DNA from: Blastocatellia bacterium
Lineage (GTDB): Bacteria > Acidobacteriota > Blastocatellia > UBA7656
Assembly: GCA_035634255.1 (NCBI GenBank)
Contig: DASQDI010000089.1
Coordinates: forward strand, 45,142 to 109,141
Direction of reading: 5' to 3'
Length of the DNA stretch: 64,000 nt
Shown: positions 1 to 45,310 of the stretch, piece by piece
Layout of the letters: every line of letters begins with the position of its first letter
Numbering within the stretch: the first letter of the stretch is position 1
Program-made: the position numbers and the translations under genes
Notes under the pieces: generated by a model
Told to the model about the DNA's origin: nothing
Database searches by the model: none
What the model saw: only the letters and a program-made list of their open reading frames with translations

Positions 1-820
1 TCACCCCGACCACGCCGCTCTGGCCGATCAGAGGGGCGCACATCACCGACTGCACGCCCTGCACGGCGAGGGACGCCGAGCTCTCGAAGCGCTGGTCGGC
101 CTGCGCGTCGATGGAGAGCAGGGAGACGCGCTCGGACAACACGCGGTCGAGCACGGTCCGGCTGATGGTGAACCTCTCGTCCCTGCGTCCCCCGTCGCGG
201 AACTCCGTCGCGAACGGCGAGAGCTGGTCGCCATCTTTCAGCAGCACGATGAAGCGGTCGGCGGCCGTCGTGCGGAATATCATCTCGCTCACTTTTTTGA
301 ATATGTCCCCGAGCGAGAATACGGAGCTGAGCATCCGGCTCAGTTCGTAAAGGCGCGACAGCACCTCGGCCTTCACCTGAAGGTCCGCGATCTCTTCGCG
401 CGACAGGGCGGACGGGGGGTGCTCGCCCATGCGCCGGCCGGTGTCGTAGGTGATGTGCGCGGGGCTGCGCAGCAGAACGTTCTCGCCGATCTGGCCGTCC
501 TCGAACCGCACGTCGAGGTGCTCGGGCCGGTCTTCGAACCGGAGGGAGTAAGAGCCTATCGCGATCAGGTCTCCGTTGCGCAGCAGGGCCTCGTCGACGC
601 GCTGCCCGTTCACGAAAGTCCCGTTGGCGCTCTTGAGATCGACCAGCCTGCACGCCTGCTCGGACCACTGCACGATGGCGTGCACGCGCGACACCTGGCT
701 GTCGCTCAGGGAGATGTCGTTGACCGACAGGGAGCGCCCGATGCGGGTCTCCGGCCCCGACAGCTCGAAAGTCGAAACGTCCCCCGAACCGGCCTTCTTT
801 ATAATCAGCTTCGGCGGCAT
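1..820 (-). CDS. FHA-domain plus GAF-domain signalling protein, C-terminus runs off the window start (partial)
   Basis: Manual minus-strand translation from ATG at 820 (RBS GGAGGTGAG upstream; stop of the upstream gene at 830) gives MPPKLIIKKAGSGDVSTFELSGPETRIGRSLSVNDISLSDSQVSRVHAIVQWSEQACRLVDLKSANGTFVNGQRVDEALLRNGDLI..., a classic FHA pattern (GR...D..L.D..VSR.HA....L.DL.S.NGT.VNG). It is followed by a GAF-like segment (...FIVLLKDGDQLSPFATEFRDGGRRDERFTISRTVLDRVLSERVSLLSIDAQADQRFESSASLAVQGVQSVMCAPLI...). No stop before position 1. Absent from the supplied ORF track because it is open-ended. Confidence 0.6.
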   Translation of the reverse strand, partial: MPPKLIIKKAGSGDVSTFELSGPETRIGRSLSVNDISLSDSQVSRVHAIVQWSEQACRLVDLKSANGTFVNGQRVDEALLRNGDLIAIGSYSLRFEDRPEHLDVRFEDGQIGENVLLRSPAHITYDTGRRMGEHPPSALSREEIADLQVKAEVLSRLYELSRMLSSVFSLGDIFKKVSEMIFRTTAADRFIVLLKDGDQLSPFATEFRDGGRRDERFTISRTVLDRVLSERVSLLSIDAQADQRFESSASLAVQGVQSVMCAPLIGQSGVVGV

Positions 821-829
821 ACTCACCTC

Positions 830-1600
830 CTACCACTCATACTCGCGCCCGATCTCGGCGACAAATACCGGGGGGGCCTCAAGCCGCGCGAGCTGCCGCA
901 CTACCTGCTCGCGGTTGCTGGGCTTGATGTGTACGGCAAAGACCTGCGCCTCTCTTTCGAGCTTTGTGAGGTCGCGGGCCAGCGTCCGCGGGGTGAAGTG
1001 CCTCGACGCGGCCGCGAGCTCCTCAAGCTCGTCCGGGTAAGAGACATCGACGAAGATCGCCTTCAGCCGCTCGCACCGGTTGGCCGCCCGCCATATCGCG
1101 TCGGTCGTGCAGGTGTCCGAGGTGAACAACACGGAGGCCGAGTCGTCCTCGACCAGCAGCCCCATCGTCTCGACGACGTGGTTGACCGGTATGGGGGTCA
1201 CCTTAAGGCCCGCGATCCGCGTGGCCAGCAGCGGCTCAAGGGGGTGGAATTCGAGCGCGGGGCCGGCCCCGTTGGCGAGCGGAATCTTCTCGAAGTCCGG
1301 CCACACCTGATCGTTGAAGACGAATTCGCGCAGGGCGGAGATGACCGCGCGCGTGCCGTAGACCGTGATCGGCTCCGTCAGGCCGGTGAATGCCTCGGCT
1401 ATGAAGATGGGCAGCGAAGCGGTGTGGTCGCTGTGAGAGTGCGTTATCACGATGTGGCGGAGAGAGGCCATCTCCTCCGGCGCGAGCGCCAGCCCGATGC
1501 TGCCGCCGTCGACGGCCAGACAGTCGTTAACCAGAAAAGAGGTCAACGCCTGATGCTGCGCGCCGGATGCGATGCTGCTCGGCAAGAGTTTGATTTTCAT
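830..1600 (-). CDS. metallo-beta-lactamase-fold hydrolase, class II 3',5'-cyclic-nucleotide phosphodiesterase-like (CpdP/PDE1-like)
   Basis: 256 aa; HSHSDH (HxHxDH metal motif) in IVITHSHSDHTASLPIFIAE; N-terminal LTSFLVND..LAVDGGS resembles the class-II cAMP phosphodiesterase N-terminal signature; stop at 830 sits 10 nt before the next gene's ATG. Confidence 0.6.
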   Translation of the reverse strand: MKIKLLPSSIASGAQHQALTSFLVNDCLAVDGGSIGLALAPEEMASLRHIVITHSHSDHTASLPIFIAEAFTGLTEPITVYGTRAVISALREFVFNDQVWPDFEKIPLANGAGPALEFHPLEPLLATRIAGLKVTPIPVNHVVETMGLLVEDDSASVLFTSDTCTTDAIWRAANRCERLKAIFVDVSYPDELEELAAASRHFTPRTLARDLTKLEREAQVFAVHIKPSNREQVVRQLARLEAPPVFVAEIGREYEW

Positions 1601-1738
1601 GAATCTCCGGTTCAGGGGCCGGTGGTCAGTGGTCAGGAGTCAGGGGCTAAGGAAGGAGCATCTCAGACTCTCTTTGTAGAATCCTTTTCGAGTATATCGA
1701 AATCTCAAGTTGCATCTCTGAATCCCGACCCCTGACCC

Positions 1739-4700
1739 CTAGCTAATCTTAACCCCGAGGCTTTCGAGAAACTTCGTCGGCTTCTCGCCGCCTATCAGGG
1801 CGAACACGTAATCGTTCGGGATCCGCGCCTTCTCCTCCCCCGTCTTCACGTCTTTCAGTACCACTTCGCCCTCTTTAATCTCTTTGATCTCGGCCCGAAA
1901 ATACACCTTGATCCTGCCCTTATCCATGCAGTCGTACACGTTCATCTTGTTGCCCAACTTCAGGTCGGCTTTGAAATCGCTGCGCACGACCAGAGTCACT
2001 TCGTTGTCGCGCGTGAAGGTCATGCCGTCCCCGTCGCGCCTGAGGCCGCACAGGTCGACCGCCGCCTCCACCGCCGAATTTCCCGCGCCCACGACGACGC
2101 ACTTCCGGCCGGAATAGTCGTCGGGGTCCGTGAGCCTGTACTTGACCTTGCTGTCCTGGTAGGAGGCGGTCAGGGTCTCCGGGAACTGGCTGCCGCACGC
2201 CGCACAGCGGACTTGCGCGCCCTGCCGCGCGGCCCCGCACTTCACGCAATGCTTCACAAGTCCCGGCTGAAGTTTGATCGTCAACTCTTCGCCCGGCACT
2301 CTGAGCTTCATGGGGGTCCCGCGGTTGCCTATCGCGAGGATCACCGCGCGCGCCTTGTAAGCGGAGGTATCTTTTAATTTGCCCTTCTCCGTGACGACTC
2401 GGAAGAAGCCCTGCTCGCGCTTGATGTCTTTGCAACTCTCCTGGTCGTGAATCGCGATGCCGTTTGACTTCATCGTCCGCATCCAGCTTTCGAGTATCTG
2501 CTCTTTCTTGTCGCCGGCGCCCGCCAGAGGCAGCCCGCCCCTCGCGTCCATCGTGTCGGGCTTGAAGTAGATATATTTGCCCGCCGGGTACGCCTCGATG
2601 GTGCTCACGACCCGGTCCTGCTCTACGAGAATGTATTTGAGGCCGCGCTGCCGCGCGATCACGGCGGCGGACAGCCCCGCGGGGCCCGCGCCGATCACGG
2701 CCACGTCGTAGTCGGCCTCGCCCGACGCCTCTCCGCGGAACGACTCGATTATGTGGTCCACGACCTGCGCGCCTTCGTTAACGGCGTTCTTGATCAGGGG
2801 CACTCCCGACACGTCCCCGATCAGGTAGATGCCATCGACGTTGGTCATGAATCTCTGGTCCCGCGCCGGGACCTTCCTCGGCTGGATAACCTTCGTGGTG
2901 TTGATGACGATGCAGGCTTTCGGGTTGGTGGGGCATTCGACCTGGCAGCTTGTGTCCTCCATGCATTGATCGATGGCGACCGAAGTGGCGATCCCGTTGA
3001 CGATGGCTAAGACATCGTGCGGGCACACTTCGACGCAGGCGTGGCAGCCTATGCAGAGCACGGGGTCTATGACCGGGTGAGGGTAGGCCGGGCCGACCTC
3101 TTTGAGCTTGTCGAGGTCAAGCGACCGGCTCCCGAGCATGCCGCTCGATTCGGCCTGCCCGTCATGTTCGGCCCGCGGCCTCACGGTTTTGAAGAGGCTC
3201 CTGCGGCGAACGGTCCCCGCGAAGACCGCCGCGAGCCCGAACAGAATGGGCGCGCCGACCAGCGCGAGCCATACCCTCCACGAGAGCGCGCCCATGCCCG
3301 AGATGAAGCCGCCCGCGGGCGCGTCGCGGTCCTGCCTTATCCGCCCGGCCTCTCCGACCCCCGCGAAGACGCGCGCGGTGGCGAGCCTGTCGGAGTCTTC
3401 ACCGGGGCCGCCCGCTCCCAGGGTGGTGAAGTAGGCTTTCAGCTTCCTCTCGTCGTCTTCGGCAGAGGCGAGGAATTTGGCGAGGTCTTCGCTCTGGCCG
3501 TGCTGCTGATGACAGCCGTTGCAATTCGCCTGCACGCGCTCGACGCGGCCCTCGGAGACCGAGGCGACCCCGTGGCACTTGGCGCACTCGTCGCGGGGCG
3601 AGTCACGATAGATGGCGCTGCCCCGCGTGCCGGAGTGGCAGTCTTTGCAGGTCATCCTGTCCTTCATCCTGCCCAGCTGGTGAACTCCGTGGAACTGGTC
3701 GTGGGGACTCAGAGTCGCCACGTATCCCGGCAGTCCCTTCCTCTTCACCTGCTCCGCCGAAAGCTTCCACTGCCACGTGCCGTTCGCTTTCGGGTAGCCG
3801 GTCACGCCCCCGTGCGGGATGGCGAGCGGGCTCCCGGCCCTCTCCCCGGTCTTTATCTCGTACGAGCCGTTGTGACAATTCGCGCACAGACCGTAGCTCA
3901 TCAACCCCATCTCGGAGTCGGTCCCCTCGTGCTCCGTGTGACAGGCCGTGCAGCCCATGCCTTCCCGCTCGTGCGCGTCGTAGATGGCGGGCCGGAATGC
4001 CTGCGTCGTGTGGCAGTCTCCGCACTTGTTCTGCATCAGAGAGGTGATGCCGTGGCAGCTCGAACACGACCCGCCATTCGGTTGCAGGGCGACGTTGCGC
4101 GCGGGCGGGGCCGCCCCGGACTGCGCGGACGCCGAGTGCGCGGCCGAGAGAGGCCCCGGCGAGTAGGCTTCGTCGAAGAGATAAAGCGCGCCCAGCGAAG
4201 CGGCGGCGACCGCTATCACGCCCCACGCGAAGTACGATTTGCGCCAGAGCCTTTTCAGGTCGAGTGTAGGCCGCCAGTTCCATTGCGCCTTGCCCACCCT
4301 CTGATTCTCCTTTGGGTGGAGCGGCGTGCGGGCGTTGATCTTGCCGGCCTCGCGCCTGCGCTTCTCCCAGAACACGTCGAGAGCCTGCTGATCGATTGAA
4401 GGCAGCGCGGTGTTGAGCAGGCCCCTGCCGGGGAGCCGTCCCGTGGGAGGAACCCCCGCCCGCTTCTTCGCGGAAGCCACGGGCATCCTGACCAGCACCG
4501 TCGCGCCCGAGCCGTCGTCGACCGGAAGGACCTTGCTCGGGGTGAGGCCGAGCGCGTGCAGTTCCAGCTCCCGCTCGACCGTTATGGCGAGCGCGTTCCC
4601 GAGACGACTCGCGGCCAGAACGTACGGCCCGATCTGAATTATGTCCCCTTCGGAGAGCGGGCTCTTCTCCACAAGCTCGCCATTGAGCACAGTGCCGTTC

Positions 4701-4915
4701 GAGTTCGAAAGGTTGAAGAGCCAGAACTCGCCGTTGATCTCTTTTATCCCGGCGTGCGTGCGGGAGACCGCGCGGTGGTTGAGGACGAGGTCGTTGCCTA
4801 TCAGGCGGCCGATGGTCAGCCCCTCGCTTTCGAGGGCCACGTCGTCGACGCCCCGGTCCTTGTCTTTCCTCTTAATGATGAAGTTACTCTTTGCGGACAT
4901 AGCATCCCACTTCAT
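1739..4915 (-). CDS. multidomain redox protein: N-terminal FHA domain, TM helix, heptaheme cytochrome c domain, TM helix, 2x[4Fe-4S] ferredoxin domain, FAD/NAD(P)-dependent pyridine-nucleotide-disulfide-type oxidoreductase domain
   Basis: ORF 1739..5002; start assigned to ATG at 4915, which forms an ATGA overlap with the TGA stop of the upstream gene (4912-4914). FHA: GRLIGNDLVLNHRAVSRTHAGIKEINGEFWLFNLSNSNGTVLNGELV...GDIIQIG. TM1 YFAWGVIAVAAASLGALYLF. Seven CxxCH motifs (CSSCH, CGDCH, CTACH, CANCH, CKDCH, CAKCH, CNGCH). TM2 WRVWLALVGAPILFGLAAVFAG. Fe-S: CIGCHACVEVCP and CQVECP. Rossmann folds DYDVAVIGAGPAGLSAA and KCVVVGAGNSAVEAAVDL, plus an inserted C4 zinc ribbon (CVKCGAARQGAQVRCAACG). Confidence 0.85.
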   Translation of the reverse strand: MKWDAMSAKSNFIIKRKDKDRGVDDVALESEGLTIGRLIGNDLVLNHRAVSRTHAGIKEINGEFWLFNLSNSNGTVLNGELVEKSPLSEGDIIQIGPYVLAASRLGNALAITVERELELHALGLTPSKVLPVDDGSGATVLVRMPVASAKKRAGVPPTGRLPGRGLLNTALPSIDQQALDVFWEKRRREAGKINARTPLHPKENQRVGKAQWNWRPTLDLKRLWRKSYFAWGVIAVAAASLGALYLFDEAYSPGPLSAAHSASAQSGAAPPARNVALQPNGGSCSSCHGITSLMQNKCGDCHTTQAFRPAIYDAHEREGMGCTACHTEHEGTDSEMGLMSYGLCANCHNGSYEIKTGERAGSPLAIPHGGVTGYPKANGTWQWKLSAEQVKRKGLPGYVATLSPHDQFHGVHQLGRMKDRMTCKDCHSGTRGSAIYRDSPRDECAKCHGVASVSEGRVERVQANCNGCHQQHGQSEDLAKFLASAEDDERKLKAYFTTLGAGGPGEDSDRLATARVFAGVGEAGRIRQDRDAPAGGFISGMGALSWRVWLALVGAPILFGLAAVFAGTVRRRSLFKTVRPRAEHDGQAESSGMLGSRSLDLDKLKEVGPAYPHPVIDPVLCIGCHACVEVCPHDVLAIVNGIATSVAIDQCMEDTSCQVECPTNPKACIVINTTKVIQPRKVPARDQRFMTNVDGIYLIGDVSGVPLIKNAVNEGAQVVDHIIESFRGEASGEADYDVAVIGAGPAGLSAAVIARQRGLKYILVEQDRVVSTIEAYPAGKYIYFKPDTMDARGGLPLAGAGDKKEQILESWMRTMKSNGIAIHDQESCKDIKREQGFFRVVTEKGKLKDTSAYKARAVILAIGNRGTPMKLRVPGEELTIKLQPGLVKHCVKCGAARQGAQVRCAACGSQFPETLTASYQDSKVKYRLTDPDDYSGRKCVVVGAGNSAVEAAVDLCGLRRDGDGMTFTRDNEVTLVVRSDFKADLKLGNKMNVYDCMDKGRIKVYFRAEIKEIKEGEVVLKDVKTGEEKARIPNDYVFALIGGEKPTKFLESLGVKIS

Positions 4916-7347
4916 TCGGCCGCGTAATAGATCACCTGAATTATGTGAACGATCATGAGGGCGAGCATAATGGAAGTGGTCGCCACATGCGGCGGCAGCC
5001 ACACCTTCAGCAGGCGGTGTACGTAGATCAGCGCGTCGACCCTCCTCAGGGCCGCCGCCGATTCGACCGCGCGCAGAAGCTTCCGCCTGTCCCTCTCGCT
5101 CTCCAACCTCCCGGCTTCACCCTCGAACTCTCCCTTCGCCAGGTCGAGCGCCCGGTCGGGGTCCTCGCGCTTCGTGTACTGTTTGAGCAGGTACCCGAAA
5201 GAGATGAACCGCGGAATCACTCGCCTCTTTATCAGGTGCGAAACCTGCTCCGACGTATCCGAGGCAAGCTCCATCAACTCTTTCTGCAACTCCTGCCGGC
5301 GCACGAGCAGGTCGTCGAGCAGGAGCGGAGCGCCTTCGATCTTCGTGAGCAGTCGCGGGCCGAGGTAATAACAGGCGATCCCGAACAGGCCGGTGAGTAT
5401 CACGAGATCGAAGCTGATCATGAGGGCCGTCGTGAGCATCCCCCCGGAGTCCGTGCCGCCGTGGAGGAAGATCATCACCGCGCCCAGTACCCCCAGGTAA
5501 GAATGCGCGAGCATCCAGTACCTCAGAGCGCCCGCGCGCTTCTTGTATATCTGCCGCCTCACCGGGTAGAGCATCGCGAAGAAGATCGCCGCGAGCCCCG
5601 CGAGGCCCGTGACCCACCGCATGTTGAGAAAGCCCCAGAGCCGCTCTCCGAACCCGTAACGGTCGAGGCCGAAGACCGCCGCCGCCGACAGCAGCAGGAG
5701 GCCGAGGATTCCCACGGCATGCGTGAGGCGGCGGGGCGGGTCCGACCTGTGAATGTTGCGGCCATAGGCGTGCCTCGGGTCGAGAACGAGCAGCCCCTCG
5801 ATCTCCCCGATCTCCGTGAAGTACTCGCGCGGGTTGATGCGCGCCAGAGCGCCGGTTGGGCAGTTCTCTTCGCAGCTGTAGGCGCGCCGCCTCGCGGTCG
5901 GAGGGTTGAGCGAGGCGCGGTCGCTGCACAGGTTGCACTTGACCGCGAGCAGGTCGTCGGTCGCTTCGACCGGCGGCGGGAGCGGGTCGAGCCTGATCCG
6001 CAGCAGGTCTTTCAAGCGCGCGGCTAAGCCCATCTTCGACGAAGCCGGGGGCCTGCGCGAGGTCATCGAGATCGCGTCGTAAGGGCACTGGGCCGCGCAG
6101 TCCCCGCAGCCGATGCAGGTCGATGTGTTTATGTCGATCTGCCCCCCGGTGAAACGCCCGATGGCCCCGGTCGGGCACCCGGTCAGGCACTCCGGGTCCT
6201 TGCAATGCATGCAGACTTCGGGCGAAAGGAGGCTCTGACGCGCGCCCGCCTTCGGGGCCTTCAGCCGCGTTATGTGGATGCCTCGTCGCGTGAGCCGCGA
6301 CTGCCCGTGAATCTTATGGCAGGCCAGGGAGCAGTTGCCGCACCTGACGCAGAGGTCCATGTCCATCACGAGCAGGTTGGTCGCGTCCACCAGCCCCGTG
6401 TCTATCAGGTCTTCGCGCGCCGACATCACCGCGGAACGCACTCCCGGAGCCTGTTTCGTGTCTTCGAGCGGGAACGGCGGCGGGGTAAATCGCGCGAGCT
6501 CCGAGGAGAGAGACTCCCTGACCGCGGGCGTTTGCCGGAGCGGGTCAATGGGTATTTCAATGACTTCGGCGCGGGCCATGATCGTGACTGTGTAAGGCCA
6601 CAGGGAGTTTTTCATCACCTCTTCCAGCCCGAAGCAGAAGCCGCTCCCAAGGAAGTCCCGGACCTCGGAGCCCCCGGCCTGTCTGCTCCTGCGAATCCAC
6701 CCTTCCTTGATTATGTACACCCGATCCGCCGGCAGGCCCTCGTGAAAGAGGACGTGGTTCTTGGAGTAGATTTTGAATGACGAGAGATTCTGAAGCTCGG
6801 GCGTCAGTTCCGGCCTGAGGCCCGTAACGAGCTTCAGGTCCTCGATGGCCGCATTCCTGCCGTGGAGCCGGTAAGTCTTGTCGAGCGTCTCCCCGAATTG
6901 CGGGAGCTTGCGAAGGAGCCTGAGGGCCGGGCGCTGCACCTCCAATATATCGGCAGGCGCGAGCCGCGAAGATTTGACCGTGGCGTTGCGAGGCACGCCC
7001 GCCAGCACCGACATCTCGCCGAACTGCGCCCCCGGCCTCAGCTCCGCGACCTTAAGCTCCCCGTCGCCGGGCGTGTTGACCAGCACGTCGGCCGAGCCCC
7101 TGACCAGCAGGTAGAAGGTATTGCCGCCCCAGTCGCCTTCCCTGACCACGACCTCGCCCGGCTCGTAAGTCAGCAGGCGCACGTAAGGGCCGACCTTCTT
7201 CCCCCCGTAGTTGCGCCCGTAAACGATCACTTCGAGGTCCAGCTCGTAATTGAAATGGCCGTCGTTCATCGAGAGCAGCTCGGACACGGAAGGGAGGTCC
7301 CTGATCGCGTCGAGCACCTCGCGGCGACTCTTATGTTCAAGCGGCAT
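4912..7347 (-). CDS. tandem cyclic-nucleotide-binding domain protein fused to a 4x[4Fe-4S] ferredoxin-like module and a C-terminal polytopic membrane domain with conserved His
   Basis: 811 aa. Two CAP-family cNMP-binding domains (FGEMSVL...RNATV; FGLEEV). Cys clusters CVRCGNCSLAC, CMHCKDPECLTGCP, CIGCGDCAAQCP, CNLCS...CEENCP. About five hydrophobic helices at the C-terminus with His (MLAHSYLG, IFLHGG, MIVHIIQ). Confidence 0.85.
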   Translation of the reverse strand: MPLEHKSRREVLDAIRDLPSVSELLSMNDGHFNYELDLEVIVYGRNYGGKKVGPYVRLLTYEPGEVVVREGDWGGNTFYLLVRGSADVLVNTPGDGELKVAELRPGAQFGEMSVLAGVPRNATVKSSRLAPADILEVQRPALRLLRKLPQFGETLDKTYRLHGRNAAIEDLKLVTGLRPELTPELQNLSSFKIYSKNHVLFHEGLPADRVYIIKEGWIRRSRQAGGSEVRDFLGSGFCFGLEEVMKNSLWPYTVTIMARAEVIEIPIDPLRQTPAVRESLSSELARFTPPPFPLEDTKQAPGVRSAVMSAREDLIDTGLVDATNLLVMDMDLCVRCGNCSLACHKIHGQSRLTRRGIHITRLKAPKAGARQSLLSPEVCMHCKDPECLTGCPTGAIGRFTGGQIDINTSTCIGCGDCAAQCPYDAISMTSRRPPASSKMGLAARLKDLLRIRLDPLPPPVEATDDLLAVKCNLCSDRASLNPPTARRRAYSCEENCPTGALARINPREYFTEIGEIEGLLVLDPRHAYGRNIHRSDPPRRLTHAVGILGLLLLSAAAVFGLDRYGFGERLWGFLNMRWVTGLAGLAAIFFAMLYPVRRQIYKKRAGALRYWMLAHSYLGVLGAVMIFLHGGTDSGGMLTTALMISFDLVILTGLFGIACYYLGPRLLTKIEGAPLLLDDLLVRRQELQKELMELASDTSEQVSHLIKRRVIPRFISFGYLLKQYTKREDPDRALDLAKGEFEGEAGRLESERDRRKLLRAVESAAALRRVDALIYVHRLLKVWLPPHVATTSIMLALMIVHIIQVIYYAAE

Positions 7348-7438
7348 AAATGATGACCCTTAACACCCGTCTGATCGCTCCCTTCATCGCGACCGCTCTT
7401 CTTTCAGGCAATGAATGATTCTCCATCGCGAACCGTCA

Positions 7439-8317
7439 TCAGAAAGGGAGCGCCCCCGTGTGGCACTTCGTGCACACGGCTTCGCGCGCGCGGACGTGAC
7501 AACTCCAGCAGGCCGAGCTGTGCCTCTGCCCGCTCGCGGTGCTGATCTCCATAATGTCCGGGCGCGTCGCGTTCCCGCCCGCGTCGGAAGTCTTGTGGCA
7601 CCTCGCGCAGTCGACCTTTCCGGTGTGCGAAGCGTGCCTGAAATTATAGAGCCTGAACGCGGACCCGAGGCCGCGACTGCCTTTCGACGCGGTCGCGGCC
7701 TCCGAGTGGCAGACTCTGCACTCGCTCAACTGCTGGCCCGCCTGATGCGCGTGGCAACTGTAACACTGCTCGTGCGCGGGGAAGCTGGCGTTCACGCCCG
7801 CCGGGTCGAACCGATGGCAGCGGTCGCACTTGCCCGCGTCCGCGTCCGAAGGCATCTTCGACGGGTCGAGGTGGGTCTTATGCGAAAACCCTTTCAGCCC
7901 GAACTCGCCGAGTTTTTCCGGGAAGCTTATCAACTTCCCGTCCACCGGGACCACGTGACAGATCACGCAAAGCTCGCTCGTGGACGAGCTCATGTCCTGC
8001 ACGTGACACTCGATGCATGCCCTGTGGCCCGGAAATTTCGGGACCACATCGTTGTCGGCCCGCTCGTGGCAGGCGTTGCAGTCCTGCGCCCTGGTCCTGT
8101 GCTCGGGCCGGTTGTGATCGAAGGGCGACCTCTTCTCAATCGTCTTCGAGACGACGACGTTGAAGGGCGATTCTACAGACGCCCGCTCGGGCTGCGGCGA
8201 TTCCGAAGGCGCGGGCTGCGTGCGCTTCGCCTCCCTGCACGCGAGCAGGCCGAGCATCAGCGACACGGCCGCGACCGCGACCACGCGCTTGATTTTTATG
8301 GCCCTGTGATTCCGCAT
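7439..8317 (-). CDS. multiheme cytochrome c (about 9 CxxCH), probable lipoprotein
   Basis: 292 aa; signal/lipobox-like LLACREA; CNACH, CIECH, CVICH, CDRCH, CYSCH, CRVCH, CARCH, CWSCH, CTKCH. Confidence 0.85.
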   Translation of the reverse strand: MRNHRAIKIKRVVAVAAVSLMLGLLACREAKRTQPAPSESPQPERASVESPFNVVVSKTIEKRSPFDHNRPEHRTRAQDCNACHERADNDVVPKFPGHRACIECHVQDMSSSTSELCVICHVVPVDGKLISFPEKLGEFGLKGFSHKTHLDPSKMPSDADAGKCDRCHRFDPAGVNASFPAHEQCYSCHAHQAGQQLSECRVCHSEAATASKGSRGLGSAFRLYNFRHASHTGKVDCARCHKTSDAGGNATRPDIMEISTASGQRHSSACWSCHVRAREAVCTKCHTGALPF

Positions 8318-8332
8318 CTCCGCCGCCCCCTC

Positions 8333-9250
8333 TCACCGCTTCGCGAGGCTGTCCAGAATGCTCGCAGGCAGAACGTCGGGGAGCCCGACTTTGCCGTTGT
8401 GACACTGCCGGCAATGCTCCGGCTCCGGCAGCCTTATCTCGTCGAGCCGCGCGGCCCGTGTGACGGCTCGGTGACACTCCGAGCACAACGCGTCCGCGGC
8501 CTTAACGGCTCGGAACTCGCTCTTCTTTTTCGGCCTTATGTCGTAATCGTGGTCCGCGTGCCTGAACTCGCGCACGACCCCGAACAGGCGCGGGGCCTGC
8601 GGATAGCCGAGCCTGTGACAGCCGGCGCAGTCGAACATAGCGGGCCTGACGAGGGGCTTTTCATCATGGCACCTGAAGCAGGCCGCGTGGCCCGTCTCGA
8701 TGGTCATGTCTTCCGCCCGCGCCGCCGCTGGCTCGACCCTCCTGTGGCACTCGGCGCACTTGTTGCTCTCGTTCGCATTCAGGCCGACGGGCGACGGTTT
8801 GAGGTGCGACGGGTGCGAGAAGTCCATGCCGAAGTCGGTCCTGAGGTTCCTCTTCGGGAACTCGAAGAGCGCCGACTGGCTCCTCGACACCGCGCGCCCC
8901 TCGTGGCAGATGCCGCAGAAAGCCACCGGCTTGATGAAGAACTCGGCCGCGAAGTTGTGACACGGGGTGCAGGCGAGGTGCCCCGGAAATCCCTTCACGT
9001 CTATCTGAGCCGGGGAGACGGAGTGGCACTTCGCGCAGTCGAGCGCCCTGTGGCCCTTCGTCTCGTGAGGGAAGCTCGCCGCCGCTCGCGAGGCGGGCGA
9101 CTGCGCCCGAGCCTCGGACGACGCGGGGTTGAAATAGAGCAGAATCCCGCACAGACAGGCCAGAGCCAGCGTCCCTGTCTTTACCGATGTCTTTATCGAT
9201 CTGACGCCCACCTCTCCCTCCGGGTGCCGCGGTCCACCTCCCGAAATCAT
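8333..9250 (-). CDS. multiheme cytochrome c (about 8 CxxCH), secreted
   Basis: 305 aa; hydrophobic N-terminus; CAKCH, CTPCH, CGICH, CAECH, CFRCH, CAGCH, CSECH, CRQCH; its ATG (9248-9250) overlaps the TGA of the upstream gene (9247-9249). Confidence 0.85.
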   Translation of the reverse strand: MISGGGPRHPEGEVGVRSIKTSVKTGTLALACLCGILLYFNPASSEARAQSPASRAAASFPHETKGHRALDCAKCHSVSPAQIDVKGFPGHLACTPCHNFAAEFFIKPVAFCGICHEGRAVSRSQSALFEFPKRNLRTDFGMDFSHPSHLKPSPVGLNANESNKCAECHRRVEPAAARAEDMTIETGHAACFRCHDEKPLVRPAMFDCAGCHRLGYPQAPRLFGVVREFRHADHDYDIRPKKKSEFRAVKAADALCSECHRAVTRAARLDEIRLPEPEHCRQCHNGKVGLPDVLPASILDSLAKR

Positions 9251-9705
9251 CGGGCCGCCGAGACCGTCTGGTGACAGCCGTTGCAGGTCGTCGGCCCTTT
9301 ACTCGAAGCCCGATGGCACGCGATGCAGCTATCGTGAAAAGCCCTCTCCGCGAATACTTCGTCAAAGTCCCTGTTCTTAGGGTTGCCCTTACTGCCCTCG
9401 GCCCTGTGGCACGCGCCGCACTTCGACAACTGCGGCACCCCGAAAGGGTCGCGCGCGTGATGGCATCCGACGCATGCGGCCCCGGCCTTCGATTGATAAG
9501 GGGCCCGAGGGTCGGGGTTCATACGGGCCTCGTGCGCTTTGTGGTTGAACAGCACGACGCCCCGCCTGCCATTCATGTCGAGCCTGAACACCTTCGCGCC
9601 GCCCTGCCCGAACGATTCCGTCCGCGCGACCGGGACGGACGGGGAGATGGAACTGAGGGCGAGCCCGAGGGCGTAGACGACGATGACGGCCAGCTTCAAA
9701 CCCAT
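9247..9705 (-). CDS. small periplasmic tetraheme cytochrome c (c3/c7-like)
   Basis: Start placed at MGLKLAVIVVYALG (ATG 9703-9705, GGAG RBS upstream) inside ORF 9247..9825; CVGCHH, CGACH, CIACH, CNGCH; paralogous to the N-terminal domain of the 13842..16154 product (FNHKAHE...CVGCHH vs FDHKKHE...CVGCHH). Confidence 0.8.
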   Translation of the reverse strand: MGLKLAVIVVYALGLALSSISPSVPVARTESFGQGGAKVFRLDMNGRRGVVLFNHKAHEARMNPDPRAPYQSKAGAACVGCHHARDPFGVPQLSKCGACHRAEGSKGNPKNRDFDEVFAERAFHDSCIACHRASSKGPTTCNGCHQTVSAAR

Positions 9706-9724
9706 CCGAATTCTCCGAGGCGAT

Positions 9725-12700
9725 TCACCTCTTCGCCCTCTTCCTCTGCCTGCGCCATTGCATGACGCTGATCGCCGGGGGCACAAGGATGAAGAAGAGG
9801 TTGAAGAGGTCGGGTGATCGGTCATGCAATCTTTCGGGCGGCGCGGCCTGCTCGATCTCTTCCAGACGCTCCTCCCCCCCGCCCGGCTCCTTCGCCCGCG
9901 ACGAGTCGCCCGAGCCCGCGGGCGGGCCGTAGAAATCGCGAACGTCTCTGTTCTGCTTTCGATTCTGGTCCCGAATCTCCGGCACCGCGTAGGGTTCGGG
10001 CCTGCCCCCGACGGCCTTCAGGTACATTCGCCGCATCTCCGACAGGTTGAAGGGCCGGGACCCCCTGCGCCCGAACACCGCGAGCTGGTTGCCGCTCTCA
10101 TCCGCCGCCCGGTCGCGGTCCAGCCCCTCGGAGACGGCGAGCGCCGGGGCGTGCGTGTGGTGCGTCGCGATGAGTCGGGGCGACGGCTTCGGGCTGAAGC
10201 CGTAATGTCCGGGCGTGTCTTCGGGCGACGTGAGCTGCAGGACCCGCAGGCCGTTGCGCCCGTCGGCGACGTAGGCGAACAGGCTCACGTTCGTCATCCC
10301 GACTTTAACGTCGCGCGCGTCGTTGATCTTCCCGCCCGCGTCGTAAAGTTGCTCGACGCGAGGTCGCTCCGGCTGCTCTATGTTGATGACCGCGAGCCCC
10401 TGCCGGCCCGCCGCGACGTAGGCGTAGGTGCGGACCAGATAAATGCTGTTGGCTTCGGGGAGCGGGACGGTGGCCGAGGCGATGGGCCGCGCGTCGGCGG
10501 GCGCGGTCACGTCGATGACCTTCACCCCTTCCGAATCGCACACGAATGCGTAGCGGAACTGGACCTGCACCGCGCGCGGCCGGTTTAGGAAAGGCGCGCC
10601 GACCTCTTTCACCACCCGCGGCTTCAGCGGGTCGTCGAGGTCGATTATCACGAGCCCCCTGTCGCAGGTGACGTAGGCGTGCGTGCCCGCGATGGTGATG
10701 CTGCTCGCGCCGTTGAGCACCCCGCTCGGGTTCCACGTCAGCGCGCGCCTGAGAAAATTATTTCTCGGGTCGCCGTCGAGCAGGGTCGCCGCGCCCACGA
10801 GCACGAGCCCCTCGTGCCTGTCCGTGACGTAAATGTAGCCGTAGAGAGGATGGATCGGCTGCCCGTCGTCGCGGTTGATGGCCTCTTCGTTTTCCGGCAG
10901 GTGCCGCCTCGTCGGGTCCACGGCCATCGTAGAAGGCGAGGCCACCGAGGTCGCGTACTTCGTGTCCACGTAAAACCTCTGGCCGAGCGGAGAGAACGGG
11001 GCCGTGGTTATCCGTTCGGAAAAGCCCTTCTGGTCTATGTTGGCAACGTCGTAGACCTTGAGCCCTCCGCGGCCCGTCGCCGCGTAAAGGTACTCGCCCC
11101 GGAGTTGCAGGCTCAGCACTTCGGTCTTCCTGTCCCGCAGGGGCGTCAAGGCGTTCAGGATGTCGTTGCCCGGATGCTCGTAGAACTCCTTCAGCTCTTC
11201 GTGATTCTCTTTGTGCTTATTATATTGGTCGGGGAAGGCGAGGCCGTGCAGGTAGCTCCCTATGACCGCCTGCGGCTCGTCCCTTTCGGTGACCACCACG
11301 CCCGCGAACCCCGCGTCCCCCAGGGCGACGTAAGCGAACCGGCCTATGAAGTTGTAGAAGTTGGTCCCCTGCATCAGGGTCATCGCCATGAAAGCGTTGT
11401 TGTCGCCCGCGGCCGACACATGGCAATCGGTGCAGCCGCGCGTCTCGCGGGTGCGGACCGTGTGCGGGAAGTGGGGGCTGAACGCCGTGCCGCTGTAACC
11501 TTCCGCCGAGACCGTCTGCTGCTGCGAGTATATCCACTCGCGGTTCTGATTCTGCGAGCTGACGAGCACGGCGCAGGCGGAGCGGATGGGCGCGACCCTC
11601 CGACCCGTCACCGAGCCGTCGCGCCCGAGCAGGAACACGTCGTCGCGGAGGGTCTGGAAGTTATAAGAGGTGTAGTTGCGCAGGTCCTTCTCGCCCTCGT
11701 TGTGCAGCATCGGCATCTTCTCGTTGGCTTCCATCTTGAGGTGGCAGCCGAAGCAGCTGGGGGTCCACGAGGTGTGGCAACTGTAGCAGGTCATGTTCGA
11801 GTTCGCGTGCGCGAGCGAGCCCTCGCCTTCGGGCGCGCGGCCCCACGTCTTCCCGTCCTTGAGCAGGGTCTTCGCGAGCGCCGCGACCTCGTTGTAGTCG
11901 GGGTTCCCCTCCGAGACCGTGTCGGCCACCTGCTTAACTTCCCAGACCTTCGGGTTCCCCTTCTCGTCCGTCGCGACCGCCGCGCGCTGGAACAGCCTGC
12001 CCTCCCTCTTGAAGAACCGGTCCTTGCCCGAAGGGGTGTCGCGGTACTCGATCATCCGGTTGCCGCCCGCCGCGGCGGAGGTCCGCGCTTCGACCGAGGT
12101 GGGGTCGGCGCGCTTCGTTATCGTGCCGTGACAATCGACGCAGTCGATCTCGATGGCGTTGCGCACTTCGCCGTAGAGCTTCCCGTTCCCGTGATTGTCC
12201 TGCTTGAAGTGACAGTCGACGCAGTGCATGCCCTTTTCGAGGTGGATGTCTTTCAGGTGGACGGGCACGCCTTCGCGCGAGGCCGGGTCGTCGGTCGTCT
12301 CCCTGACGGCCCTCCGCAATTTCTCGTTCGTCACTTCGCCGACGACCTTGCCTCCGTGGTCGAGCAGGTTGCCGTGGCGGTCTTTCTTATAAGCCGACCT
12401 GAATACCCAGCCGTGGCCCGTGAAGTCCGCGAACTGGGTGTGTTTGAGCTTCGGGTTCACCTGCTCCGTGAGGCCCTTCAAAAACTCCACGTCCCCCCAC
12501 CTGCCGCGCAGGGCCGACTCTTCCGGGTTGCGCTTCAGAATCTGCTGCGCCTGCTCGGGGCTGAGGGGCTTGCGCTCGCCGGCCTTCGGGTACATCTTGT
12601 CGCCGTCGGTCTCAAGGTCCCACCACGTGTAGCCGAAGTATGAATTGACGACGAGGGTGCCGGGGTGCATGTGGCAGACCACGCACTGGCTCGAAGGGAT

Positions 12701-13828
12701 CGCGCGCGTGAACTGGTGCCTTATGGGGTGGCCCGGCTCGTCCTTCGGGATCGTCGGGTCTTTGCTGTGGCTGAGCCCCGTGTGGCCGTATTGCGAGTAA
12801 GGCCCCGAGTGGAACTGGTCGCGGTCGTTCGCGTAGACGACGTGGCAGGCCGTGCAGCCGCTCGAACGGTAATCGCCCGGCTGGTCGTTCGTGCCCATGA
12901 ACGAGAGCATCGGGTCGAGCAGCCTCGTCTTTTGAAGCCCGAGGAAAACGGGGTCGGTCCTGAGCAGGGTCCCGAGCCCGCGCGGGCTGAGCAAATTCTG
13001 AGTCGGGCGGCCCGGCGGCTCTTCCGTTATGGGGAGCCCGACCTCCGCCGCCTTGCGCCCCCCGCGCTCGAACGTGCGGAGTATGTTTCCCATCTGGGTG
13101 ATCTCCCACCGCGGGAGCGGGTCGAGGAACGGGAGCACGCCCTTTTGCTTAATATCCTGGGCGGACGGCTGCGGGACGGTCTGAAGGCGCTGGGGGCGGC
13201 CCTCGGAGTCGTAGCTCTCGCCGAACCTGTAATTCTTGAGCGGGTACGACCCGTTGTTATAAAGCGCCGCGCCCCAAAGCATCGAGCCCGTAGTCATCAT
13301 GCTCTTGCCGACGTTGTGCACGTCCTCGGTGTGGCACTCGCTCGTGCCGCAGCTCAGGCGCGCCACGCGCAGGTCGCCGGGGTTGATGAAGCGGATGAAC
13401 TCGGGGCTCTCTTTAGTCAAAAGGGTGTTGGACCGCTCGGGATTCGCGGAGCTCTTCCAGGCTTCGGGGAAGCGCGGCGGGACGTGGGCCTTCTGCTTCG
13501 CCTCGGCGTACGCCGAGGCGCCGGGGCCCGCGCCCTGGGCGAGTCGCGCGCCCGCGTCCCCCCCGTGGCAGTCGGTGCAGCCGATGTCGATGGCCCCGCC
13601 GTGCATGTCCTCGATGCCCGCGTGACAGTCTAGGCAGCCCGCGCTCCTCCGCATGGCCTCTTCGGCCGTCGTGTTCCAGAGCCGGGGCCCCTGCGTTTGG
13701 GGATTTTGTGAAGCGGTTCTCGAATCGGCGAGGACGGCGAACGAGTAGCCGCAGGCCAGCGCCAGTATGAGCGACAGCTTCAGGGTGCTTTTCCGCCAGA
13801 CCAGTTTCATTGGGCCGCCCATCTCCAT
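9725..13828 (-). CDS. giant secreted multiheme cytochrome c (about 9 CxxCH plus one CX4CH) with C-terminal LVIVD-repeat beta-propeller and hydrophobic/polybasic tail
   Basis: 1367-aa ORF (alternative start MKLVWRK at 13810); signal peptide [17 protein letters not shown]. Heme motifs CLDCH, CTDCH, CGTSECH, CTACH, CVVCH, CVDCH, CVDCH, CYSCH, CFGCH, CTDCH. Repeats [13 protein letters not shown] / [17 protein letters not shown] / [14 protein letters not shown] / [15 protein letters not shown] / [15 protein letters not shown] / [15 protein letters not shown]-terminus ...[27 protein letters not shown]. Confidence 0.85.
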
Positions 13829-16154: not shown

Positions 16155-16406
16155 CCGGTCCTTCCTGCCCGCGGGACAGCCAAATAGTGACTGCCATACT
16201 GAATGAAGGGATCCAAAAATCAAAACGATCAGGAATAGTTGAGAAGATCGCTTCTTGAAATAGTTGCTTTACGTTCCCTAAGAGCCCGGCTTCTGCGAGT
16301 CCGCGCCAATATAGCACAACGATTCATCAAAGTTAAGCAGCGGGTTCGGCGCGCTCCGGCGCAGCGATACTTTTCGCTCTACAAAATGATCGCGGTTGCA
16401 TGTAAT

Positions 16407-44605: not shown

Positions 44606-45310
44606 CTACTCTTTCGGGATGCTGACGGGCTTGCCTGCCTTCAGGTCAGCGATCAAGCTCTGATAAGTGGCGAGTTTGGGGCTGGACGGCTCGGCCTCTC
44701 TTAAACGGCCCAGGGCTTCCTCCGCCGCGCGGGCGTCTTTCCTCAGGATTTGCGCGTCGATCAGGTGCCCGAGGGCGTGAGAGTTTTTCGGGCTGAGCCT
44801 GAGCGCGCTCTGAAGTTCCTGAAGGGCCTTGGCAGGCTCCGGGCTCTGCTTATAGATCATGCTCGCGCCGATCTGGACGTACAGTTCTGGCTCGTTAGGC
44901 CGGAGCGCCGCCGCCCTGCGGTACCAGGCTTCAGCGTCCTCGTACTTTTTCTGCTCGAAATAATATTGCGCGATTAAGGGAGGGATATGGTACCTGTCGG
45001 ATTCCGCGGGGTTGATCTCGTAAGCTTTCGCCATGTAACTGATAGTCTCCGGGACCATCCCTATCTGGTCATACAATCTGGCGGCTTCTATCTGCGCCAT
45101 GAAGTCACTGGGATTGTTCCTGGCTTTCGCTATGGTCTCCTGCACGGCGGCCATCGAGGGCGGGCCGCCCTGAGCCCCCGGCATGCCCGAAGCCTGCGAC
45201 GCCGGGACCGTGACGGCCTGGGTCCTGTTGTAGTACTGAGTCCAGAAGAAACTGACGACGAAGCCGAGCGCCAGACCTGCCAGCCCGAACAGGTACTTGT
45301 TTTTGCTCAC
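44606..45310 (-). CDS. TPR-repeat membrane-anchored protein
   Basis: GTG start (VSKNKYLFGLAGLALGFVV; GGAGAG RBS) inside ORF 44606..45478; the longer ORF would overlap the RNase P RNA, so it was shortened. Confidence 0.65.
   Translation of the reverse strand: MSKNKYLFGLAGLALGFVVSFFWTQYYNRTQAVTVPASQASGMPGAQGGPPSMAAVQETIAKARNNPSDFMAQIEAARLYDQIGMVPETISYMAKAYEINPAESDRYHIPPLIAQYYFEQKKYEDAEAWYRRAAALRPNEPELYVQIGASMIYKQSPEPAKALQELQSALRLSPKNSHALGHLIDAQILRKDARAAEEALGRLREAEPSSPKLATYQSLIADLKAGKPVSIPKE

Follow-up and report, generated by a model that had tools for sequence, protein, structure and literature searches.

The 64,000-nucleotide stretch of DNA analysed here (the window; positions 45,142 to 109,141 of contig DASQDI010000089.1, a Blastocatellia bacterium) carries two adjacent genes, termed A and B, that we propose together encode an inner-membrane redox module. 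Gene A appears to join a periplasmic heptaheme cytochrome c to a cytoplasmic ferredoxin and flavoprotein, and gene B appears to supply additional iron-sulfur (Fe-S) clusters and the cofactors that cross the membrane. We assign this overall model, which is drawn from sequence, a probability of about one half. Our confidence that B provides the membrane crossing is higher than this figure, whereas that in the direction of electron flow, in the electron donor and in independence from quinones is lower.

An earlier reading of the same sequence (the first-pass annotation) had proposed that electrons pass from NAD(P)H to the hemes across the membrane within the single chain of A. However, the two transmembrane (TM) helices of A contain no His, Cys, Met or Lys, and the only conserved residues within them are Trp, Gly and Pro. 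Thus, there is nothing in A that could hold a cofactor inside the bilayer. The physiological limit for electron tunnelling is approximately 14 Å (Page/Moser/Dutton), and the membrane core is approximately 30 Å thick. The distance between the Fe-S clusters and the hemes of A would therefore span the entire bilayer and lie far above this limit, and so single-chain transfer is not supported. Most plausibly, the membrane wire is supplied by the upstream gene B.

The C-terminal membrane domain of B has five predicted helices (residues ~537-564, 570-592, 607-627, 637-671 and 784-810), wherein a large insert separates the last two. There are two H-x13-H pairs, H615/H629 in TM3 and H787/H801 in TM5, and all four His residues are invariant in 58 B proteins that share 50-87% identity. 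Since TM3 and TM5 both run from the inside to the outside, H615 and H787 should be located near the cytoplasmic face and H629 and H801 near the periplasmic face. His pairs on two parallel helices are a classical sign of two stacked bis-His b hemes, as known from cytochrome b and the NADPH oxidases (NOX). We therefore propose this domain as a candidate di-heme b membrane wire. It has no Pfam match at E <= 10 and no PDB match in a profile-based sequence search. An exhaustive search of 1.84 billion cluster representatives (50% clustering) recovered 1305 relatives, including distant proteins that combine cyclic nucleotide monophosphate (cNMP)-binding, Fer4 and TM domains, as well as stand-alone membrane proteins of ~280 amino acids, at 24-32% identity. 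The four His residues are retained in 68 of the 84 distant representatives that are long enough to judge, in stand-alone and fused proteins alike and at identities as low as 24-30%, and the remainder are mostly fragments.

Upstream of its membrane domain, B carries a four-cluster [4Fe-4S] domain in which all 16 Cys residues, arranged in four motifs, are invariant in 58 sequences. Its PDB matches include 6cz7_B (ArrB), 2vpw_B and 7z0s_B. Because every named equivalog model scores below its cut-off, membership of the four-cluster class is evident at the level of fold only. This domain is predicted to be cytoplasmic because B lacks a signal peptide and because the domain follows two cNMP-binding domains. 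The latter place B in family PF00027 (96.7 bits against a threshold of 27.5), and ligand binding is predicted for the first of them, in which G110, E111, R120, A122 and T123 are conserved; the second lacks the Arg. A role for B as an ion channel, which a combination of cNMP and TM domains might bring to mind, was set aside on account of the Fe-S domain and the His-pair signature.

Gene B is located immediately upstream of A in 67 of the 68 loci that have enough upstream DNA, across A proteins of 39-100% identity and including Bryobacteraceae and Pyrinomonadaceae. In one complete Blastocatellia genome (loci L003 and L027), an IS200-type Y1 transposase gene (9413-9913) lies between B and A, and the cytochromes, together with a 1199-amino acid WD40 protein, are located downstream rather than upstream.

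There are also two natural fusion proteins, P0249 (1277 amino acids) and P0391 (1207 amino acids), in which an A-type TM1-heptaheme-TM2 segment is joined in frame to a B-type membrane domain. They are only 43% identical, come from different samples, and have a topology that fits both parents. At the sequence level these proteins are a Rosetta-stone link between the c hemes of A and the putative b hemes of B. In both cases, the redox fusion forms the C-terminal module of a protein of ~1200 amino acids (P0249, L085 8001-11834; P0391, L084 8001-11624). The N-terminal ~650 amino acids are shared with hundreds of Acidobacteria proteins that carry other C-terminal modules (TPR/WD40, TonB_C, FGE-sulfatase and others). 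Both genes are preceded by genes for an iSTAND protein (TIR_2 or DUF4062) and an AAA ATPase, a context that suggests recruitment of the redox module by a conflict/STAND-type system.

Gene A itself is encoded as two open reading frames (ORFs), divided after the seventh heme, in Pyrinomonadaceae and a few further bins of Acidobacteriota. There are at least 12 such loci, namely L060 (9827-11488 and 11525-13078) and likewise the rest of L059-L063, L066-L068, L070, L075, L042 and L053. The first ORF encodes FHA-TM1-7 hemes. The second encodes a 517-amino acid protein with an extra N-terminal TM helix ahead of the segment 'GGLPWFGW'-TM2-ferredoxin-flavoprotein. Fusion is therefore not obligatory, and the form found in the window is one of two natural arrangements. 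The ferredoxin-flavoprotein half is predicted to be membrane-tethered in both, as expected if it docks on B.

Gene A is a single intact gene on the minus strand, in agreement with the first-pass annotation, which had proposed one polypeptide here without naming a strand. A plus-strand reading of the same interval was rejected because its translation is broken by stops throughout. The longest ORF extends to position 5002 with a GTG start. The product is identical to HYP27675.1, annotated in GenBank as an 'NAD(P)-binding domain-containing protein' from a Blastocatellia metagenome-assembled genome (MAG). That entry is 1053 amino acids long and begins five codons later, at position 4900, with a Met that serves as the start in most homologues; residue numbers used here are counted from the ATG at 4915. 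A protein search recovered at least 120 full-length homologues of 955-1136 amino acids and 46-100% identity that share the same domain set in conserved order and bear only generic names. Accordingly, an artefact of gene fusion, or of sequencing errors obscuring two or more ORFs, was rejected. Every element of the domain order read earlier is present according to Pfam, motif and hydropathy evidence.

Relatives of A are encoded in 407 stretches found by a scan of species-representative genomes (one genome per species). The best 80 of these 407 all come from Acidobacteriota MAGs, namely Blastocatellia, Pyrinomonadaceae, Chloracidobacterium-like members, two Terriglobia/Bryobacteraceae and a few bins labelled 'Clostridia'. 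Four bins labelled 'uncultured Clostridia bacterium' (L005, L026, L071 and L073) carry the whole Blastocatellia-type cluster at 54-62% identity, and their taxonomic labels are probably wrong.

The topology of A was assigned by the charge rule and by helices in the AlphaFold2 (AF2) model. There are five Lys and Arg residues in the 15 residues before TM1 and none in the 15 after it, and the corresponding numbers for TM2 are zero and six. No signal peptide precedes the FHA domain. Under the positive-inside rule, this bias places the N terminus inside, the heme loop outside and the C-terminal half inside, and an external heme loop is what covalent heme attachment requires. Hydropathy and charge thus agree with the arrangement proposed earlier, wherein the heme segment is outside and the FHA and ferredoxin-flavoprotein parts are inside.

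All 21 residues of the seven CxxCH motifs (at 284, 298, 322, 344, 423, 444 and 465) are invariant in 74 aligned A sequences, and so are His residues 260, 315, 329, 368, 409, 412 and 472, which are candidate distal ligands. There are thus enough His residues for seven bis-His hemes. Pfam matches to Cytochrome_C7 and c3_2 are weak, and AF2 confidence for this domain is low. An eighth apparent CxxCH motif (CIGCH, 621) was rejected as a heme site because it is part of the first Fe-S motif. Just before TM2 there is a conserved periplasmic motif, G-A-L-P/S-W-x-x-W, that is also present in the split proteins, and G542 and W549 are invariant wherever the TM2 segment is present. A linker of ~40 amino acids, variable and of low AF2 confidence, connects TM2 to the ferredoxin domain, in which the eight Fe-S Cys residues (621/624/627/631 and 651/657/661/668) are all invariant in 67 sequences.

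The cytoplasmic segment preceding TM1 (residues 166-227) is more conserved than the FHA domain. W183, R186, R188, E189, G191, K192, W214, D219 and L220 are invariant in the 74 A sequences, and the segment may be a docking surface for B. The FHA domain itself scores 55.3 bits against the PF00498 gathering threshold of 20.7, is modelled by AF2 with a predicted local distance difference test score (pLDDT) of 80-90, and has GarA and OdhI as its nearest PDB matches. It is a member of the phosphothreonine-binding FHA family, and such binding is predicted for it, in line with the gating by Ser/Thr phosphorylation that the first-pass annotation had suggested. The pocket residues R37 (71/72), S51 (70/72), H54 (69/72) and N73 (65/73) are kept in about 88-99% of the residues present in each column of a 74-sequence alignment.

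The flavoprotein of A matches Pyr_redox_3 and Pyr_redox_2 over residues 736-1057 (E 2e-36 and 6e-30, respectively). It comprises two Rossmann domains with GxGxxG at 742-747 and GxGxxA at 943-948, and these dinucleotide motifs are invariant among the aligned homologues. The top Foldseek matches of residues 686-1058 are the YpdA structures 7a76 and 7a7b (E 2e-18), followed by 2zbw, 3ab1 (FNR) and 6gas, and also 6gar and 5ygq. The likeness to low-molecular-mass thioredoxin reductases (TrxR) is partial. Two Rossmann-type FAD/NADPH domains are present and many TrxR structures are matched by Foldseek, but the TIGR01292 model gives 64.9 bits (cut-off 343), and residues 686-1058 contain no redox-active CxxC, since the only CxxC motifs there are the two of a zinc ribbon. 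Likewise, the YpdA/Bdr model TIGR04018 gives 158 bits against a cut-off of 339.9, and the FAD motif reads GAGPAG and lacks the YpdA Cys, which we take to be the active-site residue within GGGPCG. The TrxR-like ferredoxin-NADP+ reductases (FNRs) are a candidate assignment: the fold matches, there is no CxxC and a ferredoxin is fused, but sequence similarity is weak (E 4e-4 to 3ab1). With no redox-active disulfide present, the earlier label of a 'pyridine-nucleotide-disulfide-type' enzyme is nominal only. Because the ferredoxin is fused to the flavoprotein, an FNR-type reaction is a sensible reading, and we infer that electrons would pass from NAD(P)H to FAD and then to Fe-S.

An unusual feature of this flavoprotein is the position of its FAD 'GD' motif (TNVxGIYxIGDV...NEGA, residues 689-724; window 2726-2860 corresponds to residues 686-730). 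It is located right after the ferredoxin and ahead of GxGxxG (window 2674-2691). This motif normally closes the FAD domain, spanning residues 314-350 of the 487 of trypanothione reductase and residues 299-340 of a TrxR of 343 residues, and the motif of A aligns to the C-terminal regions of trypanothione reductase, TrxR and glutathione reductase. The early position of the motif, and the fact that A ends where it would normally begin, indicate that the flavoprotein is circularly permuted, with the ferredoxin joined to the permuted element. The zinc ribbon is optional, being missing from P0113, P0117 and the Bryobacteraceae and Pyrinomonadaceae forms. Residues R978 and S979 follow the second Rossmann strand and weakly suggest NADPH as the donor.

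Table 1. Features of genes A and B and of the surrounding gene cluster, in window coordinates (res, residues; aa, amino acids).
Feature	Position	Strand	Description
Gene A	1739..4915	-	FHA-TM-heptaheme-TM-ferredoxin-flavoprotein, 1058 aa from ATG; ORF list, translation, Pfam/NCBIfam, GenBank match
FHA domain, gene A, cytoplasmic	4571..4888	-	res ~10-115; PF00498 match 34-96, E 9e-15
Juxtamembrane cytoplasmic segment, gene A	4235..4420	-	res 166-227; no known domain matched
TM1, gene A	4175..4234	-	res 228-247, YFAWGVIAVAAASLGALYLF; signal-anchor, N-in; hydropathy 1.94; AF2 helix 225-246
Heptaheme c domain, gene A, periplasmic	3491..4159	-	res 253-475; 7 CxxCH and 7 invariant His
TM2, gene A	3215..3280	-	res 546-567, WRVWLALVGAPILFGLAAVFAG; out-to-in; hydropathy 2.29; AF2 helix 546-572
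2x[4Fe-4S] ferredoxin domain, gene A, cytoplasmic	2906..3082	-	res 612-670; Fer4 / Fer4_10 matches
FAD/NAD(P)H flavoprotein, gene A	1742..2860	-	res 686-1058; low-molecular-mass TrxR/YpdA/TrxR-like-FNR fold; pLDDT 85-95
C4 zinc-ribbon insert in flavoprotein	2186..2254	-	C890, C893, C904, C907; ~90% conserved
Gene B	4912..7347	-	811 aa, HYP27676.1; stop overlaps ATG of A (ATGA)
Two cNMP-binding domains, gene B	6532..7215	-	res ~45-145 and ~185-272; first with intact phosphate-binding cassette
Four-cluster [4Fe-4S] domain, gene B	5833..6372	-	res 326-505; NrfC/DsrO/ArrB/HycB type
5-TM membrane domain, gene B	4915..5739	-	putative di-heme b wire; res 537-811; cytoplasmic helical insert 677-782
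D1	7439..8317	-	9-heme cytochrome c; N-terminal signal or lipoprotein-like sequence; syntenic in about 40 loci
D2	8333..9250	-	8-heme cytochrome c; syntenic
D3	9247..9825	-	membrane-anchored tetraheme c3-type cytochrome; PF02085, E 3e-10
E	9725..13828	-	1367-aa LVIVD-repeat multiheme protein, 9 CxxCH and 1 CxxxxCH; distantly ExtM-like
F	13842..16223	-	first gene of cluster; 793 aa; membrane-anchored tetraheme c3 domain and ~600 aa without family match; PF02085 match
Phosphodiesterase, downstream of A	830..1600	-	class-II cNMP phosphodiesterase / metallo-beta-lactamase fold; PF02112 E 2e-15, PF12706 E 7e-17; syntenic in ~40 loci
FHA-GAF-(nucleotide cyclase) gene, 5' part	1..820	-	cut by window edge; translation, synteny

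Genes A and B belong to a cluster that reads F, E, D3, D2, D1, B, A, phosphodiesterase and cyclase on the minus strand. Roughly 30 loci show this order in full, from the five cytochrome genes through B and A to the phosphodiesterase and cyclase, and about 40 contain most of the genes. Together with A, the five cytochrome genes are the sole multiheme ORFs of the window, and these five neighbours contain 34 heme motifs. The longest ORF for D3 overlaps the 3' end of E by ~100 nucleotides (9725-9825), and its first 40 codons are Ser/Arg-rich. Translation therefore probably begins at the Met near 9705, immediately ahead of the TM anchor. The cyclase gene is truncated in the window, and a full-length orthologue in locus L001 comprises FHA, GAF and Guanylate_cyc domains. 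Two plus-strand ORFs were rejected as genes because they lack family matches and appear as antisense shadows, one of 438 amino acids (419..1735) opposite the phosphodiesterase gene and one of 619 amino acids (7415..9274) opposite D1 and D2.

A scan for promoters found a promoter-like site at 16336-16308 that is not above chance, and no intergenic minus-strand terminator. The 138-nucleotide spacer between A and the phosphodiesterase gene (1601-1738) contains repeated GGTCAG/CTGACC-like elements (CCCCTGACCCC / GGTCAGTGGTCAGGAGTCAGGGG) that may represent a repetitive element or a structured RNA. Divergent from F, a plus-strand gene (16239-18383) encodes a 714-amino acid protein with three HbpS-like (GlcG/DUF336-type heme-binding or heme-degrading) stretches, which may be tied to heme or redox sensing for the cluster. 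A search of the window for Ser/Thr kinase motifs found none. The remaining genes of the window (UvrB, PurC, Pol I, a permease and a TonB receptor) have housekeeping functions and are unrelated.

The components described above suggest a possible electron pathway. NAD(P)H would reduce the FAD of A, and electrons would then pass to the two [4Fe-4S] clusters of A and on to the four clusters of B. The membrane would be crossed over the two bis-His b hemes of B, first at the cytoplasmic (N) side and then at the periplasmic (P) side. From the P-side b heme, electrons would enter the seven c hemes of A, whose first invariant His is located 13 residues past TM1. They might then leave through the co-operonic multiheme cytochromes D1, D2, D3, E and F to a periplasmic or extracellular acceptor. 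In this way, the module would act as a reductant-disposal or accessory respiratory outlet. We infer outward flow, which is favoured because electrons moving inward to NAD(P)+ would have to overcome the membrane potential as well as the redox potential. In the outward direction, membrane potential would be spent and nothing would be pumped, which offers a rationale for heavy gating. Control by cyclic nucleotides is suggested by the cNMP domains of B along with the operon's own cyclase and phosphodiesterase, and phosphothreonine-dependent control by the FHA domains of A and of the cyclase.

In its most specific form, this reading regards A and B as a quinone-independent NAD(P)H:multiheme-cytochrome transmembrane oxidoreductase and as a bacterial functional counterpart of the NADPH oxidases. 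The first-pass annotation had likewise proposed that the quinone pool would be bypassed, which is possible. It would be assembled from a permuted TrxR-like FNR, a ferredoxin, a four-cluster Fe-S domain, a new di-heme b family and a heptaheme cytochrome c, and would provide the abundant Acidobacteriota of soil with a direct outlet, gated by cNMP and phosphothreonine, that leads from the cytoplasmic pyridine-nucleotide pool to acceptors in the periplasm or outside the cell. We put this form forward tentatively, with clearly less assurance than the two-gene module as such.

Several observations weigh against the proposed pathway. The cofactors of A and B are predicted from sequence, and all carriers of A and B are uncultured MAGs. 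The AF2 models are of low confidence in the heme domain, in the Fe-S domains and in some of the TM domain (pLDDT 60-65 overall). The order in which the ferredoxin of A precedes the four-cluster domain of B is assumed, and the choice of NADPH over NADH is a guess made solely from R978/S979. At one locus (L074, from the same MAG as L036), a second A paralogue of 52% identity has no B within 10 kb upstream. Finally, P0249 and P0391 lack any cytoplasmic Fe-S or flavin domain. The B-type membrane domain is thus apparently fed in some other way in these proteins, most simply by quinol.

This last point leads to the most serious rival, in which operation is coupled to quinones. Perhaps the membrane domain of B is a quinone-reactive cytochrome b, such that A and B act as a quinol:cytochrome c oxidoreductase like CbcL, as an NAD(P)H:quinone reductase, or as both, with the flavoprotein feeding or drawing on the quinone pool. 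Besides needing a membrane donor such as quinol, the two fusion proteins resemble CbcL in uniting multiheme c and di-heme b parts in one chain (PMC6295460). In addition, four-cluster Fe-S proteins often partner quinone-interacting subunits, as do those behind the NCBIfam matches to DsrO, ArrB, QrcC and HmcB. However, no quinone-site family was recognised, there being no match to NrfD, NarI, HydC/FdnI or NapC/NirT in A or B, and both the Fe-S domain of B and the ferredoxin-FNR of A would be superfluous for a simple quinol oxidase. On balance, we consider this arrangement unlikely, albeit a genuine contender.

Inward electron uptake and a purely sensory role are less likely, on thermodynamic and cofactor-economy grounds, respectively. 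In the first case, electrons would run as in Tmc/Hmc-type systems from periplasmic c3-type cytochromes of low potential to the hemes of A, then through the b hemes and Fe-S clusters of B to the ferredoxin-flavoprotein of A, and finally to NAD(P)+ or another cytoplasmic acceptor. The cluster does encode class III (c3) tetraheme cytochromes (the PF02085 matches in D3 and F), and FNR-type enzymes are reversible. The layout of cytochrome c, cytochrome b and cytoplasmic Fe-S parts also parallels TmcABCD and HmcABCDEF, to which the NCBIfam matches (HmcA, HmcB and TmcA) are weak. However, reducing NAD(P)+ (-320 mV) against the membrane potential would demand donors far below typical c-heme potentials, the window contains no hydrogenase or formate dehydrogenase, and Blastocatellia are mostly organoheterotrophs (PMC8100337). 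Uptake of this kind is therefore improbable.

One could also imagine a signalling device whose hemes sense external redox conditions and control the flavoprotein or feed a cNMP/FHA network, with net flux not being its purpose. The unusual density of signalling parts (two FHA domains, two cNMP domains, GAF, cyclase and phosphodiesterase) is compatible with this, as is the recruitment of an A-type heme plus B-type TM unit as a variable C-terminal module of iSTAND/AAA conflict-type systems. Nevertheless, a sensor would need far fewer cofactors than the seven c hemes, six Fe-S clusters, FAD and two putative b hemes of A and B, to which the five neighbouring cytochromes add 34 heme motifs. The motifs for catalysis with NAD(P)H and FAD are also invariant, and this idea is more improbable still. 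Least credible of all, and very improbable, is that A alone forms a self-contained wire, possibly as a homodimer: although A holds redox modules for both sides of the membrane and TrxR-type flavoproteins are usually dimers, its poorly conserved TM helices carry no ligand residues, the Fe-S-to-heme gap exceeds the tunnelling limit, the ~40-amino acid linker behind TM2 is variable and of low confidence, one family encodes A as two proteins, and B always adjoins A.

If the two-gene module operates as proposed, it would differ from the known entry points for extracellular electron transfer (EET) in diderm bacteria (CymA, ImcH, CbcL and CbcBA), which take electrons from quinol. Reducing power would be disposed of in another way if a membrane module were coupled directly to NAD(P)H. 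As such a module would draw on membrane potential rather than build it up, models of how Blastocatellia, Pyrinomonadaceae and other Acidobacteriota balance their redox state and survive anaerobically would change. Members of these groups are among the most abundant bacteria of soil, permafrost and wastewater, and they are usually regarded as aerobes. In addition, a membrane domain family is defined here that has ~1300 relatives at 50% clustering, no Pfam model and a clear di-heme signature. Moreover, the module would be one of few electron-transport enzymes to have cyclic-nucleotide and FHA control built in, along with its own cyclase and phosphodiesterase, and the natural split and fused variants of A and B are ready-made constructs for testing.

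The first-pass annotation had recognised no described family with the architecture of A, and this impression is borne out in that we found none in the Pfam and NCBIfam libraries or in the searchable literature. A search of the literature available without subscription revealed no described family or paper with the architecture of A or with the A-B pair. A 2026 preprint on EET in peat covers only porin-cytochrome clusters. Each module is a known fold. What the searchable libraries and papers do not describe is the way in which the modules are combined, the circular permutation of the FNR, the di-heme membrane family without an assignment, and the presence of cNMP and FHA control within the proteins themselves.

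The nearest functional analogues are the NOX/ferric reductases and the Tmc/Hmc/Dsr complexes, and the nearest EET proteins are CbcL and ImcH. Enzymes of the NOX/FRE/MsrQ-Fre type follow the same logic as that proposed for A and B, wherein electrons move from NAD(P)H to FAD, through two stacked bis-His b hemes and on to an external acceptor. They likewise use two parallel helices with His pairs 13-14 residues apart, and are electrogenic, non-pumping and tightly regulated. However, the NOX/ferric reductase family is defined by six TM helices with His pairs on TM3 and TM5, and neither A nor B matches Ferric_reduct, FAD_binding_8 or NAD_binding_6; only the His-pair geometry is analogous. In addition, the flavoprotein of A has a TrxR/FNR fold rather than the FNR-like beta-barrel fold of NOX, its electrons would also have to pass six Fe-S clusters and seven c hemes, two proteins share the parts, and the membrane domain of B has five TM helices with a large cytoplasmic insert.

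The complexes TmcABCD, HmcABCDEF and DsrMKJOP of sulfate reducers resemble A and B in combining periplasmic multiheme c, membrane cytochrome b and cytoplasmic Fe-S parts that join both redox pools. The Fe-S domain of B matches the DsrO, HmcB and QrcC models weakly, with all scores far under the family cut-offs. Unlike these complexes, A and B lack an HdrD/CCG domain and a NarI- or NrfD-type subunit, and their cytoplasmic end is an NAD(P)H flavoprotein. Moreover, A carries its heme c domain and flavoprotein in one chain, and FHA and cNMP domains have been added.

Like A and B, the Geobacter proteins CbcL and ImcH provide an inner-membrane entry to a multiheme network. ImcH has seven hemes, as does A. 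Its hallmarks are three TM helices at the N terminus, a CX3CH motif adjacent to the membrane along with six CX2CH motifs, and a NapC/NirT-like region (PMC6295460). In contrast, A has one TM helix before and one after its hemes, no CX3-4CH motif and no Cytochrom_NNT match. CbcL consists of a HydC/FdnI-like di-heme b membrane domain and a multiheme c part (PMC6295460), a c and b fusion as also seen in P0249 and P0391. In the window, c and b parts are on separate chains, and the membrane domain of B has no match to the HydC/FdnI type or to any other Pfam or PDB entry at the thresholds given above. Furthermore, CbcL and ImcH oxidise quinol and, unlike A and B, contain neither a flavin module nor one for NAD(P)H.

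Among soluble enzymes, TrxR-like FNRs and YpdA/Bdr are the best sequence and fold matches for residues 686-1058 of A, with two Rossmann domains and the GxGxxG and GxGxxA motifs in common. The flavoprotein of A differs in being permuted, in its zinc-ribbon insert, in its fusion to its own ferredoxin, in its predicted membrane tether and in lacking both the CxxC and the YpdA Cys. The anammox Rieske/cytochrome b complex (Kuenenia kuste4569-4574) also unites a membrane cytochrome b, multiheme c and an FAD/NAD(P)-binding Fe-S subunit around a Rieske/cytochrome b6 core with a quinol site, but A and B have no Rieske or cytochrome b6 domains. Regarding control, GarA and OdhI switch metabolic enzymes on or off through Ser/Thr-kinase signalling. 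They are the closest relatives of the FHA domain of A and share its phosphothreonine-binding residues, whereas in A this domain is covalently part of the membrane enzyme that it would regulate.

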